A DNA stretch of 64,000 nucleotides from Dictyostelium discoideum. Its lineage: Eukaryota. Where the stretch lies: assembly GCA_000004695.1 (NCBI GenBank), contig CM000153.2:2176001-2240000 (forward strand). The letters run 5' to 3'. Positions 2,851-51,754 of this stretch are shown piece by piece; within the stretch, counting starts at the first letter, position 1; every line of letters starts with the position of its first letter. The notes beneath the pieces were generated by a model, which did not search any database, was not told the origin of the DNA, and saw only the letters and a program-made list of their open reading frames with translations. A program made the position numbers and the translations under genes.

Positions 2851-3736
<886 letters not shown>

Positions 3737-8287: not shown

Positions 8288-10464
8288 ATGATTACAAATA
8301 AATCAAAGTACTATTTTTTTTTAATTTTAATTTTTATAAATTTTTATTTAATTAATTGTCAAGAAGAATATCCAATTGATCAAACAGGAAAATGCGAACC
8401 TTATATTGGAGATAGTCAAATTACTAAATGTTCAACATTTTTACCAAATATAAGTATGTTATCATTTCTTTAATATTAATATAAATATAAAAAAAAAATT
8501 GTTGTAAAAAAAAAAAAATTGTTTAAAAAAAAAAAATGTTTAAAAAAAAAAAAAAAATAAATTAATTAATTTTAAAAAAATATAAATTAGATTCTATCTA
8601 TGTTTCGGCCAATTCAACACAAAAAGATTCAATGAAAACATTGGATAATTATTTTGGATTACTTTTAGCTGTTGGAAGTGAAAAATGTAAAGATTCGTCA
8701 CTTACATATCAAACATTATGTTCAATGGTAAATATTAAAATTAAAATATTATTTTAATAATTTTAAAAAAAAAAAAAAATAAAAAAAAAAAAAATAATTA
8801 ACTAATTTTAAATTTAAAAAAAGTATTTAAAAGAATGTGAAAGTTTTACAGATAATTCAACTTTAAAAACAGTTTCAATACCAAAAAGAATTTGTCGTAA
8901 AACATGTAATGATGTAACTAAATTATGTAATATTGAAAGTTTATTTAATTGTAGTCAAAATGAACCAATTAATAATTTACCATTATGTCCATTGAATTAT
9001 TCAATCTATGATTTATCATTAGTTAATGGTGATAGTAATTATGAATTACAATGTTATTCACCATTATCAAATGATAGTATTGAAATCCCAGTTACTAATT
9101 ATTGTCCATTTCCATTGATTTATATTAATTCTACTGATCATTCAGCAGATGAAGATAGAGGATACATGTTTGTTTCAGGTAATTCAAATTGTGTAGTACC
9201 AAATCCAGTACCGTTATATACACCAAAACAATGGGATAGATTATATGATCTATCAAATTCATTATCGGTATTATCATGTGTTGGGACATTATTCCTATTA
9301 TTTACATTCAATATTTTAAATAAAAAAATTAATAGATTCGATAGGATGAATTCTCTTTTTAATGGCTCAGTTTTTATGATGTCATTATCTGGTGTTATCA
9401 TTCTATTTGCAGGTGGTCCAAGAGCATTAATTAAAGATGGTGGCGCTCGTATTTCAGTTTGGCAAGATCCATTATGCTCTGCAACAGGTTTCATTTTCCA
9501 ATTATTTTCAATTGCTGCAATTTTATTTTGGGTTGTAATGTCTTTTGAATTATGGTATAAAATTAAATTTATGACTAAAAAATTAGATTTAAAAAAATAT
9601 TATATACCATTCATTATTATAGTTTCATTAGTATTTAGTATTATACCATTAGCAACTAAAAATTATAGAATGATTAGAGGAAATATGCAGTATGTATATA
9701 TAAATATTCAAAAAAAAAAAAAATTATAAAATAATTATTAATTTTTAAATTTATTTATTTTTTCATTAAAAAGTTGTTGGGTACATACAACAAAATTACA
9801 AAATTCATTATTTTGGATACCCTTAGGTATTGCAATTACAATTGGTACAATATTTATTGGATTGGTAATGTTTGAAATTCATAGAATTGTAAGCGCAAAT
9901 TCTAAAGGTGGTGTATTAAAATTAGAAATTAAATCAATTTTAAATGTTGCATTAATTTATTTAACATTCATTTACTTATTTGCATTTAATTTCTATATGA
10001 ATGGTCAAGAAGGTGTGGTTTATGGTCAAATTGAATCATTCTATCAATGTACACTTGAAAATGATGCATCTGAATGTACAATTCAAGGACCTTCAATTGG
10101 TTCACTTGGGTTCTTTATATTTTGTATTAGAATTTATGGTGTTTACTGCTTCATATTACAAGGTTTAAATTATAGAGCTTATAATATATGGAAAGAATCA
10201 ATTTTCTTTAATAATAGATTTGTATCATACATTAAAAATAATATTCTCAATATTGAAACTTCTTCAACTGGAAGTGGTGGAACTTCTACAACTGCATCAG
10301 CAACAACAACAACAACAACTAAAAAACACAACGGTATTGACAGTTTAAATATTGATTCAGCTTTCTCAAAAAATAATGAATCAGACGATGAAGATGATTA
10401 TGATCCATATAAAAAATCTAAAAATAATATAACTTTAAAAGATATCGAAGTTTCAAAATCTTAA
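8288..10464 (+). CDS. Frizzled/Smoothened-like (Fsl family) 7TM receptor with an N-terminal cysteine-rich domain. Model is join(8288..8453,8591..8727,8824..9689,9774..10464).
   Basis: A signal peptide (MITNKSKYYFFLILIFINFYLINC) is followed by a Cys-rich Fz-like domain spread over exons 1-3 (CEPYIGDSQITKCSTFLPNI / KCKDSSLTYQTLCSM / YLKECESF...ICRKTCNDVTKLCN...LPLCP). Seven hydrophobic helices follow, typical of the Dictyostelium Fsl proteins (LSVLSCVGTLFLLFTF ... WVVMSFELWYKIKF ... FWIPLGIAITIGTIFIGLVMFEI ...), then an acidic Ser/Thr tail. Introns are GTATGT...AATTAG, GTAAAT...AAAAAG and GTATGT...AAAAAG, all phase-consistent. Confidence 0.8.
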
Positions 10465-44151: not shown

Positions 44152-44162
44152 CAGAATCGAAC
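44152..44162 (-). promoter_or_regulatory. External B box (ex-B) downstream of the tRNA-Ser gene.
   Basis: GTTCGATTCTGG on the minus strand lies ~35 bp past the tRNA 3' end. Dictyostelium tRNA genes commonly carry such a duplicated B-box-like element (consensus GGTTCGAATCC). Confidence 0.4.
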
Positions 44163-44196: not shown

Positions 44197-44277
44197 CGAC
44201 ACCTGCAGGGTTCGAACCTGCGCCTCCGAAGAGAACGCCTTAGCAGGGCGCCGCATTAACCACTTTGCTAAGGTGTC
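44197..44277 (-). tRNA. tRNA-Ser (anticodon GCU), 81 nt including the discriminator, with a long variable arm.
   Basis: On the minus strand the sequence is GACACCT-TA-GCAAAGTGGTTAATGCGG-CGCC-CTGCTAA-GGCG-TTCTCTTCGGAGGCGC-AGG-TTCGAAC-CCT-GCAGGTGTC-G. The acceptor stem is GACACCT/AGGTGTC. The A box is TAGCAAAGTGG and the B box is GGTTCGAACCC. The anticodon loop is CT-GCT-AA. The extra arm CTCTTCGGAG forms a hairpin. Confidence 0.88.
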
Positions 44278-44349
44278 ATGGAAAAATATTATGGTGATAC
44301 ACTTGGTAAAGTTGTATAAGAAGAGATTTCATTTTTCATATAAAAAAGA

Positions 44350-44382
<33 letters not shown>

Positions 44383-44385
<3 letters not shown>

Positions 44386-45790
44386 GGAACCCAAGTTAAT
44401 CAGAAAATTTCCAGATTTTTAACTTTTTAAAGAAAAATAAAAAAAATAGAAAGAAAATAAGATGAAAATCACAAACAACACCACAAATATTAAGCAACAC
44501 AAATGCCTACAAAAAATAAGCGAAATTGTGGATAAAACTCAATTAAAAAAAAAACAATTCAAATACGTCATAAACATCAATCACGAACCAGACGATAAAA
44601 TAAAAAAAGATTTAGAAAAAAGTTTGGACAAAAAAGATGTTTTAATCAAAAGTAATAATACATTCAAAATTCTCACAGACAGTATTAGTACAGTAATCTA
44701 TTTTGTAAATATGTTTGATGCAGAATTAAAAGGACAATTTATAACCACTATAAGACCAAAAAATATGTATACAGATTTTGATTGGTATAAATCACTCACA
44801 GAAATAGAATGGGTAATAGAAAATGAAGGATGTAAACTAATTAAATTAGAAATTAAAGGCGAAACTCTAATTATCAAAACAGTGAAAAGAGTCGTAGAAG
44901 AATTTGACACTATCATTGAACTAGACAATCTAACATTAATTGGACACTCCAACAAAGGATGGAGAGATCAAACCTCATTACCAGAAAATCAAGAAGAAAT
45001 CANNNNNNNNNNNNNNNNNNNNNNNNNNNNNNNNNNNNNNNNNNNNNNNNNNNNNNNNNNNNNNNNNNNNNNNNNNNNNNNNNNNNNNNNNNNNNNNNNN
45101 NNAGATTTTTAACTTTTTAAAGAAAAATATAAAAAATAGAAAGAAAATAAAATGAAAATCACAAACAACACCACAAATATTAAGCAACACAAATGCCTAC
45201 AAAAAATAAGCGAAATTGTGGATAAAACTCAATTAAAAAAAAAACAATTCAAATACGTCATAAACATCAATCACGAACCAGACGATAAAATAAAAAAAGA
45301 TTTAGAAAAAAGTTTGGACAAAAAAGATGTTTTAATCAAAAGTAATAATACAATTCAAAATTCGAAACAAAAAAAAAAAAAAAAAAAAAAAGTAAACTAA
45401 CCCCTCTTTTAGAGACCCTGTAAAAAAAAAAAAAAAAAATAAAATAAAATGAGATCTAGCATCTCAAGGAGAAGCAAATAATAATTGCGTTATCCAATTC
45501 AAAAAAAAAAAAGTTGTATAAGAAGGGGAAAAAAACAAACAACAACAACAATCTCTTTTTTTTGATTATTTCATTTTTCATATAAAAAAGACTTAAAAAA
45601 CAAATAAATAAATAAATAAACTATTTTAAAAAGCCATCTTTTTACTTTATTGTAATTTATTATTTGTTTCGTTTTGAGAATTTTGCGTAGCAAAATTTTC
45701 AAAAAAAAAGCAAAAAATAATCAGATCGAAAAAAACAAACAACAACAACAATCTCTTTTTTTGATTATTTCATTTTTCATATAAAAAAGA

Positions 45791-45837
<47 letters not shown>

Positions 45838-46300
45838 GGAACCAAGTTAATCAAAAAATTTCCAAATTTTTAACTTTTTAAAGAAAAATAAAAAAAATAG
45901 AAAGAAAATAAAATGAAAATCACAAACAACACCACAAATATTAAGCAACACAAATGCCTACAAAAAATAAGCGAAATTGTGGATAAAACTCAATTAAAAA
46001 AAAAACAATTCAAATACGTCATAAACATCAATCACGAACCAGACGATAAAATAAAAAAAGATTTAGAAAAAAGTTTGGACAAAAAAGATGTTTTAATCAA
46101 AAGTAATAATACAATTCAAAATTCGAAACAAAAAAAAAAAAAAAAAAAAAAAAAGTAAACTAACCCCTCTTTTAGAGACCCTGTAAAAAAAAAAAAAAAA
46201 TAAAATAAAATGAGATCTAGCATCTCAAGGAGAAGCAAATAATAATTGCGTTATCCAATTCAAAAAAAAAAAAGTTGTATAAGAATTTTTTTTTTTTTGA
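44383..46300 (+). mobile_element. Tandem array of three TRE5-like (tRNA-gene-targeted non-LTR retroelement) copies. Copy 1 (44383..45002) runs into the N gap. Copies 2 (45103..45860) and 3 (45861..46300) are internally deleted, with the ORF start fused to the 3' module plus oligo(A).
   Basis: Each copy starts aacctgggaacc(c)aagttaatca.aaaatttcca.atttttaactttttaaagaaaaataaaaaaaatagaaagaaaataa.ATGAAAATCACAAACAACACC... The encoded start is MKITNNTTNIKQHKCLQKISEIVDKTQLKKKQFKYVININHEPDDKIKKDLEKSLDKKDVLIKSNNT. Copies 2 and 3 then jump to ...caattcaaaattcgaaac(A)n-gtaaactaacccctcttttagagaccctgtaaaaa...gagatctagcatctcaaggagaagcaaataataattgcgttatccaattc(A)n. The array is adjacent to the 5' flank of a tRNA gene, which is the known niche of TRE5 elements. 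Family assignment is from memory of the element's architecture, not from a database search. Confidence 0.5.
44462..45002 (+). CDS. Putative retroelement ORF1 N-terminal part (180 aa read before the gap). The start is repeated at 45152 and 45913 in the truncated copies.
   Basis: The ORF reads MKITNNTTNIKQHKCLQ...FKILTDSISTVIYFVNMFDAELKGQFITTIRPKNMYTDFDWYKSLTEIEWVIENEGCKLIKLEIKGETLIIKTVKRVVEEFDTIIELDNLTLIGHSNKGWRDQTSLPENQEEI and is continuous into the N gap. It has no homopolymer bias, unlike the surrounding DNA. Confidence 0.4.
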
Positions 46301-46480
46301 ATTGGTTTAAAGGTGTCATAGAATACCAAATGGATGAAACACTTTGCAAAGGTGTCATCGAAAAATATTTGGGTGATACACTTAGCTAAGGTGTCATTGA
46401 AAAATATTTGGGTGATACACTTTGCTAAGGTGTCCACATAAATATTTGGGTGAAAATTTTGCTCAGGTGTAATTTAAAAC
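46300..46480 (-). repeat. About 4.5 tandem units of a ~40-bp repeat, read on the minus strand as GACACCTTAGCAAAGTGTATCACCCAAATATTTTTCAATGA. Each unit reproduces the first 17 nt of the tRNA-Ser gene (including the A box) plus its 5' flank.
   Basis: On the plus strand: aaggtgtcatagaataccaaatggatgaaacactttgc / aaaggtgtcatcgaaaaatatttgggtgatacacttagct / aaggtgtcattgaaaaatatttgggtgatacactttgct / aaggtgtccacataaatatttgggtgaaaattttgctc / aggtgtaa... The array lies immediately 3' of the last element copy. Confidence 0.85.
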
Positions 46481-47099
46481 TATTTGTAAGGGAAGTGGTA
46501 TACTCTAGAAGGTCTTATAAGTTAATTATTATATTTATATTTAGTTTATATTTATATTTTGTTTTATTTATTTTTCACTTGAAAAAAAAAGTTACCAAAA
46601 AATTAAAATGAAAAAAAAAAAATAATAAAAATAAAAGTTATTATAAATGAAACTTATTATAAATAAAAAAAAACATATTTTATTAAAATATGAAAAAAAA
46701 AAATAAGAAAATATAAAAAATAAATTTTATTTTAACGGTTTATATTTTTTTTTTAAATAATAATAAAATTATTAATAAATAAGATTAATTATAAAAAATG
46801 TAATTTTTATTATTTCTATAAAAAAAAAGTGTCATTTTTTAAAATTGATAACATACAAAAAAATCTATATCATAAAAATATTTTTTATATTATAAACATC
46901 TATTTTAGAATTACACTTTTTCTTTTACCAAAATCTGTAATAATTTTTTTAATAAAATGTATTTAAATAAAAATTTTTTTTTTTTTTTTTAAAATGCATA
47001 ATTTTTAAATTTAATTATTTATTTGTTTGATAAAACCTTTTAAATTTTTTTTAACAATTTTTTTTTTACAAGTAAAATTTATAATAATGCCAAGATATA

Positions 47100-49310
<2,211 letters not shown>

Positions 49311-49961
49311 AAAAATAATAAAACTTTATTTAAATATTATTTTTGATTTTAATTTTTTTTTTTTTTTTTATTTTTTTATTTATTTTTTATTTTTTTATTT
49401 TATTTTTTATTTAATTTTATTTAATTTAACTATCTTTTTATAAAAAAAAAAACTACGGATAAATTTTTTAAAAAAAATGGATATTTATTTTAAAAAAATT
49501 GGATATAAGTGAAAAATATAAGGATGGAGATGGATATACAAAAAAACACCTTTTATCCAAAAGTTGGATAAAGGCAAAACACTAGGCAAGATCGGTAAAA
49601 ATATCTTGTAAATTACTAACTTGTTGGTATTCAAGCCACCTTCGTTTGTTTCATTTGTCCCATGCGAAAATTACCATATTAATTTCAGCATCGAGTTTTT
49701 TATTATTATTTTTAATTCTTTTATATCTGAGATGATTATTATTAATTAAATGAGAGTTTTTTTTTTTTTTTTTATACCCAAAATTACCATATTAATTTCA
49801 GCACGAACATTGAGAAATGTTTAACATTAGCCCTTTTTTATATTTTCATTTATTTATAATTTTTCATATATTAATTTTATTATTTTTTTTATTTATTTTT
49901 ATTTATTTTTATTTATTTGATTTTCAACTAAATATAAATGTAAAATTATTAGTTATAGTTA

Positions 49962-50529: not shown

Positions 50530-50860
50530 CAGCCCTTTTTTGATGACAGCTTAGCAAATTATATCACCCAGATATTTTTCGATGACACCTTAGCAAAGTA
50601 TATCACCCAAATATTTTTAGATGACAGCTTAGCAAAGTGTTTCACCAATATATTTTTCGTTCACACTTAGCAAAGTGTATCACCCATTGGTATTCGATGA
50701 CAGCTTAGCAAAGTGAATCACCCATTTGGTATTCGATGACACCTTAGCAAAGTGTATCACCCAAATATTTTTCGATGACAGCTTAGCAAAGTGTTTCACC
50801 AAAATATTTTTCGATGACACCTTAGCAAAGTGTATCACCCATTTGGTATTCGATGACTTT
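50530..50860 (+). repeat. About 8 tandem units of the same ~40-bp tRNA-5'-end-derived repeat (plus-strand orientation, the same as the right-hand tRNA-Ser).
   Basis: The units read cttagcaaattatatcacccagatatttttcgatgaca / ccttagcaaagtatatcacccaaatatttttagatgaca / gcttagcaaagtgtttcaccaatatatttttcgttcaca / cttagcaaagtgtatcacccattggtattcgatgaca / gcttagcaaagtgaatcacccatttggtattcgatgaca / ccttagcaaagtgtatcacccaaatatttttcgatgaca / gcttagcaaagtgtttcaccaaaatatttttcgatgaca / ccttagcaaagtgtatcacccatttggtattcgatgac. Confidence 0.88.
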
Positions 50861-50879
50861 TTTTTTTTTTTTTAATAAC

Positions 50880-51590
50880 ATCACTCGATTTGGTATTCGA
50901 TGACAGTTTTTTTTTGAATTGGATAACGCAATTATTAGTTGCTTCTCCTTGAGATGCTAGATTTAATTTATAGTTTTTTACAGGGTCTCTAAAAGAGGGG
51001 TTAGTTTATTTTTTTTTTATTTTTTTTTTTTTGTTTCGAATTTTGAATTGTATAATTACTTTTGATTAAATCATCTTTTTTATCCAAATTTTTTTCTAAA
51101 TCTTTTTTTATTTTATCATCAGCCGACAGTATGGCGGGTCTTGAAGTTGATGGTGTGATGACTACCAAACCTCCACTCATACTATCGGTGAAACCTTAAG
51201 CCACTTTCGTGACCGACACTCGCTCTCATCTCTCGAGCCACTCACTCGCCATTCGTCTTTATATATATTTTTACTTTTATCGACTTACTTTGTGTGAGCG
51301 CGAGAGGCACCAGCCTCCTTCCAGTTACTTGAAGTGTCTCGCCAGTGTGCCACACGTTTACTGTTGCAGTGACTGACTAACCAACGGCTTCGCTTGTGCA
51401 CCGGGGTAACCTGTCGGCCGTTGTGCCGTCGGATGGTTTTTGGAAGCTACCTCCCCAGATTCATTTCGGAGTTTTTTGGTTGCGATACTTATTGGTCAGG
51501 TTATACATGTCGAGGAGATTTTGCTTTAACCCATCAATATGAGTGTATATTACTTCCTTCTCTTGATCTGGGTCCTCTATGTGTATTCGA
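50880..51590 (-). mobile_element. Inverted partial TRE5-like element in minus orientation. The GC-rich 5' module (51121..51590) is joined to the ORF1 fragment (...DDKIKKDLEK...) and to the 3' module plus oligo(A) (50880..51060). Its 5' end lies ~45 bp upstream of the right-hand tRNA-Ser.
   Basis: The reverse complement of 50880-51120 matches the left-arm copies: ggataaaaaagatgatttaatcaaaagtaattatacaattcaaaattcgaaac(A)n..taaactaacccctcttttagagaccctgtaaaaaa...atctagcatctcaaggagaagcaactaataattgcgttatccaattcaaaa. 51121-51590 is an atypically GC-rich (~50%) non-coding block (agccgacagtatggcgggtcttgaagttgatggtgtgatgactacc...ccggggtaacctgtcggccgttgtgccgtcgg...). That block is absent from the left-arm copies. 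Confidence 0.5.
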
Positions 51591-51630
51591 TGACAGCTTA
51601 GCAAAGTGTATCACCCATTTGGTATTCGAC

Positions 51631-51711
51631 GACACCTTAGCAAAGTGGTTAATGCGGCGCCCTGCTAAGGCGTTCTCTTCGGAGGCGCAGGTTCGAACCC
51701 TGCAGGTGTCG
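51631..51711 (+). tRNA. tRNA-Ser (anticodon GCU), identical in sequence to the copy at complement(44197..44277).
   Basis: The same 81-nt sequence GACACCTTAGCAAAGTGGTTAATGCGGCGCCCTGCTAAGGCGTTCTCTTCGGAGGCGCAGGTTCGAACCCTGCAGGTGTCG occurs on the plus strand. Confidence 0.88.
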
Positions 51712-51743: not shown

Positions 51744-51754
51744 GGTTCGAATCT
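51744..51754 (+). promoter_or_regulatory. External B box downstream of the tRNA-Ser gene.
   Basis: GGTTCGAATCT lies 33 bp past the tRNA 3' end. Confidence 0.45.

Follow-up and report, generated by a model that had tools for sequence, protein, structure and literature searches.

This 64-kb stretch of Dictyostelium discoideum DNA (hereafter, the window) carries tandem repeats in which the 5' end of a neighbouring tRNA-Ser(GCU) gene is copied again and again, and thereby raises the question of whether such repeats are orphan promoter elements at work or debris of the processes that reshape DNA beside tRNA genes. To us the array looks like a by-product of DNA instability beside the tRNA gene and not like a working promoter element; more specifically, we consider it very likely that the repeats form a young, locus-specific minisatellite (VNTR), generated at the DNA level from a 39-bp segment that spans positions -22 to +17 of the tRNA-Ser(GCU) gene.

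Two arrays of 39-bp units in register with a tRNA gene pair

ARAGORN and Rfam made only two complete tRNA calls in the window, both of them tRNA-Ser(GCU) genes with the same sequence, placed head-to-head and 7.3 kb apart (Table 1); the window is AX4-like, and an open reading frame neighbouring the pair was found to share 100% identity with XP_638432.1. Upstream of each gene lies an array of repeat units that is in register with it, the 5' end of the gene serving as the final, partial unit (i.e. the first 17 nt of the left gene are the last unit of the left array). Read in the tRNA sense, the unit is composed of the first 17 nt of the tRNA (GACACCTTAGCAAAGTG), followed by ~22 nt of 5' flank (e.g. 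TATCACCCAAATATTTTTCGAT). A first-pass annotation of the left arm had described tandem repeats of ~40 bp; the repeats are there, with a period that TRF sets at 39 bp (46309-46486, 4.6 copies, 80% matches, score 181), and the right arm holds a larger twin of the same period (50536-50841, 7.9 copies, score 416). Allowing for at most one mismatch, the 12-mer CTTAGCAAAGTG occurs 13 times in the window (0.13 occurrences being expected from shuffles), with all 13 matches falling inside the two arrays or the two tRNA genes.

The same annotation had each unit begin with the exact first 17 nt of the tRNA, A box included. Among the left-arm units the exact 17-mer is found only at 46396-46434, the neighbouring units carrying one mismatch each, and the A box is copied over 10 of its 11 positions, its final conserved G lying outside the duplicated segment. 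In the right array, units starting with GACAGC and GACACC alternate and are combined with two spacer types (AAATATTTTTC and ATTTGGTATTC). As had been proposed, the units adjoin directly and are not CRISPR-like: the 22-nt non-tRNA part is itself repeated and no unique spacers are present.

Table 1. Coordinates of the features discussed in the text (positions within the window).
Feature	Position	Strand	Basis or remark
B-box-like GTTCGATTC	44154-44162	-	~33 nt downstream of left tRNA gene
Left tRNA-Ser(GCU) gene	44197-44277	-	ARAGORN; Rfam, 61.1 bits
tRNA-proximal unit remnant, left (TTTACCAAGTG + TATCACCATAATATTTTTCCAT)	44278-44310	-	
Target-site duplication GTTGTATAAGAA, copy 1	44311-44322	.	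further copies at 45513-45524 and 46274-46285
Left tandem TRE5-type non-LTR retroelements	44323-46273	+	5' end toward tRNA gene, 45 nt from +1
Interrupted unit, left (start GACACCTT, then A-rich insert TAAACCAATTCA(13))	46286-46317	-	
Three well-preserved left units (46396-46434, 46357-46395, 46318-46356)	46318-46434	-	TRF and unit lists
Degenerate distal left unit	46435-46471	-	
Central unique segment between the arms	46914-49655	.	alignment to other haplotypes
Right array, eight units	50545-50854	+	TRF and unit lists
Degenerate right unit with T16 + AATAAC, then start of next unit	50855-50906	+	
Short TRE5-A-like element, right arm	50907-51582	-	48 nt upstream of tRNA +1
Proximal target-site duplication copy (51583-51596) and rest of last full right unit, abutting tRNA gene	51583-51630	+	
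Right tRNA-Ser(GCU) gene	51631-51711	+	ARAGORN, Rfam; sequence identical to left gene
B-box-like GGTTCGAATC	51744-51753	+	~33 nt downstream of right tRNA gene

The unique segment between the two arms encodes a ~640-aa product, for which a Pfam search returned no match. The B-box-like motifs downstream of the two genes are conserved in the orthologous flanks, and we take them to be the 'ex-B' (external B box) of Dictyostelium tRNA genes. Unit dimers and the left array, folded as single-stranded DNA, yielded weak structures (z -1.5 to -2.4), on which account a hairpin-driven or structured-RNA explanation of the arrays was dropped.

The repeat unit occurs at this locus alone among those compared

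Outside the two arrays, copies of the unit were found neither in the rest of the 64-kb window nor in three unrelated Dictyostelium loci. The sequence created where two units meet (AAAGTGTATCACCCAAAT; junction stretch AAAGTGTMTCACCMAAAT) provides a 23-mer that was restricted to these arrays across the nine loci fetched, and that had 0 matches in the JGI metagenomes. Furthermore, a control sample of five other tRNA genes associated with TRE5 (Ala-AGC twice, Ser-UGA, Asp-GUC and Glu-UUC) was devoid, over 6-8 kb, of upstream repeats of each gene's own 5' end. No earlier account of these arrays emerged from our searches of the literature.

Retroelements split both arrays

Both arrays are split 45-48 nt upstream of the real tRNA genes by TRE5-type elements with target-site duplications. 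In the left cluster, ORF1 starts at 44462, an N gap occupies 45004-45102, and the C-module/poly(A) end lies at 46273; the presence of GTTGTATAAGAA in three copies indicates two successive TRE5 insertions at a single left-arm site. The right-arm element has its poly(A)/C-module at 50907 and a GC-rich 5' module that ends at 51582, and is bounded by the 14-bp duplication GTATTCGATGACAG (50893-50906 and 51583-51596). Removal of the elements restores the unit register in both arrays, which, together with the flanking duplications, upholds the earlier proposal that the array is the native upstream region into which TRE5 inserted; the distance of ~48 bp given there is that of the right arm, the left one measuring 45 nt. 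This layout matches the published behaviour of TRE5-A, which inserts ~48 bp upstream of tRNA genes, re-inserts in tandem and needs a functional B box (PMC5391098).

Additional traces of insertion were observed at the locus. The N gap of the left cluster corresponds, in an AX4-like assembly (L005 523-3666), to a full-length TRE5-A with a 1047-aa ORF2 (RVT_1). A near-palindrome at 46255-46305 (CCAATTCA(12) GTTGTATAAGAA T(13)GAATTGG) combines the end of the TRE5 C-module with the target-site duplication and, within a unit, with the inverted last 8 nt plus poly(A); an oppositely oriented insertion with an extreme 5' truncation may account for it. The motif GATGAC(ACC)+T14-16+AATRAC.TCA is common to the AX4 right arm (50855-50901) and to both arms of the strain assembly ACTFIR (L006 ~3700-3715 and ~8319-8340); here a further non-LTR element ends in poly(A) within a unit, and of this element 650-900 bp are kept in ACTFIR and ~25 nt in AX4. 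ACTFIW, a further strain assembly, carries an LTR retrotransposon (L001 947-3668) 15 nt upstream of its left tRNA-Ser gene. The LTRs of this element measure 265 bp and are 97% identical, it has a gag/aspartic-protease ORF, and its target duplication is CAAAAC; its position leads us to regard it as DGLT-A-like.

Because TRE5 and LTR elements have struck this locus repeatedly and some units contain remnants of poly(A)/poly(T) (46286-46309, 50861-50876), we considered whether the units themselves could be by-products of retroelement integration, whether as overlong target-site duplications or as the residue of cycles of insertion and loss. The dimensions are at odds with such an origin: the target-site duplications measure 12-14 bp (TRE5) and ~5-6 bp (LTR element) instead of 39 bp, and the insertions lie at about -48 (TRE5) and -15 (LTR element) and not at the -22/+17 unit boundaries. 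Moreover, most unit junctions are clean, with no element remnant, and the loss of an element by recombination between its target-site duplications leaves one copy and not an array. We therefore regard an origin of the units from integration as highly improbable.

The arrays vary among strains and flank an invertible segment

Syntenic loci were fetched from other assemblies through a neighbouring ComC-like gene, using the proteins of other strains; a search for contigs encoding the 844-aa ORF of the window or the AX4 proteins P0001 and P0014 had found none on record. All three D. discoideum haplotypes compared (AX4/ACTFIT, ACTFIW and ACTFIR) possess arrays on both arms. In ACTFIT, an AX4-like, chromosome-scale assembly, the scanned right-arm units and two left-arm units are identical to those of the window, and the alignment identity across both arrays reaches 99.7-99.8%. 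Unit counts (right/left) amount to ~10/~6 in AX4, 3/9 in ACTFIW and 3/~6 in ACTFIR. The variants of the unit are haplotype-specific and at the same time shared between the arms (TCTCACCC...AAGAT in ACTFIW and ACTFIR; ATTTGGTATTC in AX4), while one unit is identical at 39 of 39 positions between the left arms of AX4 and ACTFIR.

The N gap in the left arm may cast some suspicion on the assembly of so repeat-rich a region. To the reading of the arrays as an assembly artefact we nevertheless give next to no weight, for they were reproduced in four independent assemblies, with ACTFIT agreeing almost base for base, and two wild strains carry different but homologous arrays.

Insertions shared between haplotypes provide fixed points from which changes in unit number can be read. 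A TRE5 fragment in the left arm, with identical junctions on both sides in ACTFIW and ACTFIR, is separated from the tRNA gene by 9 units in the former and 5 in the latter. In the right arm of the same two strains, a common TRE5-A 5' end lies 125 nt from +1, that is, 47 + 2x39 nt, where 47-48 nt is the canonical TRE5-A distance (as seen in the right arm of AX4 and, at 47 nt, in the control tRNA-Asp gene). These whole-unit offsets of old shared insertions, along with the 9 versus 5 units, show that the tRNA-side stretch changed in length after insertion. The young insertions of the three haplotypes (two in AX4, two poly(A) elements ~44-48 nt away in ACTFIR, and the LTR element at 15 nt in ACTFIW) are, in five cases out of five, at the canonical distance from the real tRNA gene.

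Compared with AX4/ACTFIT, both ACTFIW and ACTFIR have the central segment (at least 46914-49655) in inverted orientation, between outer flanks that remain collinear. Regarding the breakpoints, the sequence just distal to the arrays gave no alignment between AX4 and the wild haplotypes, and the inversion could have been mediated by the TRE5 copies or the tRNA genes instead of by the arrays.

The nearest species carry the genes and a single-copy flank

At the orthologous loci of D. cf. discoideum (ACTFIZ), D. citrinum and D. firmibasis, no array was found; a single-copy flank is present there, adjoining both tRNA-Ser genes in D. cf. discoideum and D. citrinum and the one that occurs in D. firmibasis. 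The syntenic loci of these three species showed no homolog of the central segment either. The single-copy flank shares homology with the unit's flank half: the left flank of D. cf. discoideum (TGTTTCCACCAAAAAAAATTTCAT; at the gene boundary, marked by a slash, it reads ATATG-TTTCCACCAAAAAAAATTTCAT / GACACC...) matches the flank half of the unit (TGTTTCACCAAAATATTTTTCGAT) in ~18 of 23 columns as judged by eye, and the right-arm flank (TCGTCCGC...) does so more poorly, in 13 of 23. From this homology it follows that the unit was derived from this very locus, and from the absence of the array in D. cf. discoideum that the array arose after the split from that species. In D. discoideum the unit is of the left type on either arm, and a copying of the array from one arm onto its counterpart is therefore the most likely explanation.

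The origin of the flank half at this locus also weighs upon the notion that the 39-mer comes from the interior of some dispersed Dictyostelium repeat or transposon family and that its likeness to a tRNA is incidental. The embedding of the arrays among TRE5 and LTR elements would be compatible with it, but the flank half has its homolog in the single-copy flank of this same gene in D. cf. discoideum, every array keeps the register of the gene and terminates in it, and the junction 23-mer is missing from the unrelated Dictyostelium loci fetched, the rest of the window and the JGI metagenomes. There is accordingly only a very slim chance that the unit belongs to a dispersed family.

In the same region of D. 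cf. discoideum (L002 ~8960-9030) we observed a reverse-oriented tRNA-like fragment (GGGCCCCGATAGTGCAGTGGTAAAGAG...GGTTCGATACCC), called by neither ARAGORN nor Rfam, between the 5' end of a TRE5-A and the right tRNA-Ser gene.

Incomplete A boxes and the question of function

One alternative holds that the arrays are functional orphan A boxes, to which tauA/TFIIIC would bind or on which TFIIIB would be positioned, such that the units would act as decoys, as alternative start-site selectors for the neighbouring tRNA gene or as extra landing sites for TRE5-type elements. We evaluated the Dictyostelium A-box motif TRRYNNARYNG (PMC5391098) across 33 units from the three haplotypes. The first 10 positions are kept in 29 of the 33 units, which is to the credit of a functional array, but the full 11-nt motif was found in none of them, position 11 being T in 32 units and A in one. 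Neither array contains, on either strand, a match to the B box GTTCRANNC, and no cloverleaf tRNA was detected among the units within the window by ARAGORN or Rfam, both of which call only the real genes; this agrees with the first-pass annotation, which had described the units as devoid of B box and 3' half.

A greater uniformity of the tRNA-derived half could likewise hint at constraint on the sequence: counted cell by cell, identity to the consensus is 95% in this half and 85% in the flank half. However, the number of distinct variant states per column differs little between them (0.94 and 1.18, respectively), so that we do not find the uniformity to be convincing evidence of selection; the pattern fits a history in which a small number of spacer variants were amplified, or in which the real gene refreshed its copies.

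With respect to retroelement targeting, the A box has been argued to fix the integration distance of TRE5-A (PMC5391098), and the two old TRE5 insertions, which lie ~42-47 nt plus whole units from the gene, are thereby ~42-47 nt from a pseudo +1. Against such landing sites stand the requirement of TRE5-A for a functional B box (a solo B box being targeted at <1% efficiency; PMC5391098) and the fact that all five young insertions are canonical to the real gene. The difference of 9 versus 5 proximal units at one of the old insertions further implies that the displacement reflects a later change in unit number. Among the loci compared, no TRE5 insertion was found ~48 bp upstream of a unit that the real tRNA gene leaves unexplained. 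The arrays are, in addition, not conserved, since the orthologous loci in the three nearest species lack them, and within D. discoideum they range from 3 to ~10 copies.

On these grounds a functional array of A boxes appears improbable. Both roles that had been suggested for the left arm (TFIIIC/TFIIIB decoys and extra retroelement targets) are disfavoured by the lack of a B box and of the last A-box G, the absence of the array in the three nearest species, the canonical placement of the young insertions and the displacement of the old ones through unit-number change. As far as can be judged from the sequence, nothing requires a decoy or landing pad, and the idea is not supported.

A possible course of events

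The reading that we favour, namely a locus-specific minisatellite, can be arranged into a sequence of steps. The starting point would be the state displayed by the outgroups, a head-to-head tRNA-Ser(GCU) pair with the flank ...ATATG TTTCCACCAAAAAAAATTTCAT / GACACCTTAGCAAAGTG GTTAATG. A first tandem duplication may then have taken place, by replication slippage or template switching, between short direct matches ((A/G)TG-TT) that are shared by the flank and the D-arm region and lie exactly 39 bp apart; since the initiating microhomology extends over 2-3 nt, we put this step forward tentatively. Fork pausing at the Pol III complex may have favoured it. Whole units were subsequently gained and lost, mainly between the older retroelement insertions and the gene, as the unit counts and unit variants of the strains show. 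Gene conversion would have copied the array between the inverted arms, and recombination between these arms is suggested by the inverted central segment. Throughout, the units would have had no Pol III role, and tRNA-targeting retroelements, by landing at a fixed distance from the real gene, would have split the array repeatedly.

A more specific proposal, which we rate as rather unlikely, is that the -22/+17 boundaries mark the place where a replication fork stalls against TFIIIB/TFIIIC-tauA on an active tRNA gene, that repeated template switching there copies the gene start, and that the arrays are the fossil footprint of this conflict between replication and Pol III. Were it true, the tRNA-linked repeats of Entamoeba could have come about in the same way. 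In a stronger variant of this proposal, upstream A boxes that are nearly complete would now and then redirect TFIIIB in steps of a whole unit, and TRE5 integration along with it.

Likeness to known systems

Similar to minisatellites (VNTR, with units of 10-100 bp that change by unequal exchange and slippage), the arrays display head-to-tail units, interspersed variants, copy-number differences among strains, degenerate edge units and a turnover concentrated at one end. They differ from them in that the unit lies across the boundary of a functional Pol III gene, whose 5' end is the terminal repeat, and in that there are two inverted copies, which exchange sequence and stand on either side of an invertible segment. 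Among described systems, the nearest analogue is provided by the tRNA-linked short tandem repeats of Entamoeba histolytica, likewise an amoebozoan, where strain-polymorphic repeats (7-44 bp) directly adjoin tRNA genes and replication pausing at these genes, together with strand slippage, has been proposed as their origin (PMC2652664). The Entamoeba repeats are located between complete, tandemly arrayed tRNA genes, and tRNA sequence within them is not reported (PMC2652664); at the present locus, by contrast, the two complete tRNA genes are inverted and dispersed, and only the 5' 17 nt plus flank are repeated. The inclusion of a gene's own 5' end is unusual for a tRNA-linked repeat.

The head-to-head TRE5 elements at 45-48 nt upstream, the 12-14 bp target-site duplications and the tandem re-insertion at one site are shared with described TRE5-A target sites (PMC5391098, PMC3159450); the array units differ from such targets by lacking a B box and having an incomplete A box, and no insertion requires a pseudo-site. 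With tRNA pseudogenes and tRNA-derived SINEs the units have in common a tRNA-derived sequence that includes an A-box-like stretch, but here it consists of 17 nt of tRNA fused to untranscribed or leader flank. The lack of a B box, of poly(A) and, among the loci fetched, of dispersal points to DNA-level tandem duplication, and not retroposition, as the origin of the unit.

Taken by themselves, the arrays are a neutral-looking minisatellite. They nonetheless offer a test case, set up by nature, for the rule by which an A-box-like sequence lacking a B box fails both to draw tRNA-targeting retroelements and to survive in evolution, and the insertions displaced by exact multiples of 39 bp constitute a dated, directional record of minisatellite growth beside a Pol III gene. 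Furthermore, the inverted arrays and the strain-inverted segment supply a compact example of tRNA-associated structural polymorphism in Dictyostelium, and the arrays could serve in strain typing, as tRNA-linked repeats do in Entamoeba.

A second tandem repeat was encountered in D. cf. discoideum (L002 4467-4561), where, 1-2 nt beyond the 3' end of the left tRNA-Ser gene (L002 4563-4645, minus strand), a perfect array of 15 bp x 6.3 begins (CCGAAAACCTTTTTT when read in the sense of the tRNA). It is an independent tRNA-abutting repeat in a lineage without the 5' arrays; its position beside the 3' end of the gene supports recurrence at this locus, and hints that tandem duplication beside this tRNA gene has occurred more than once.
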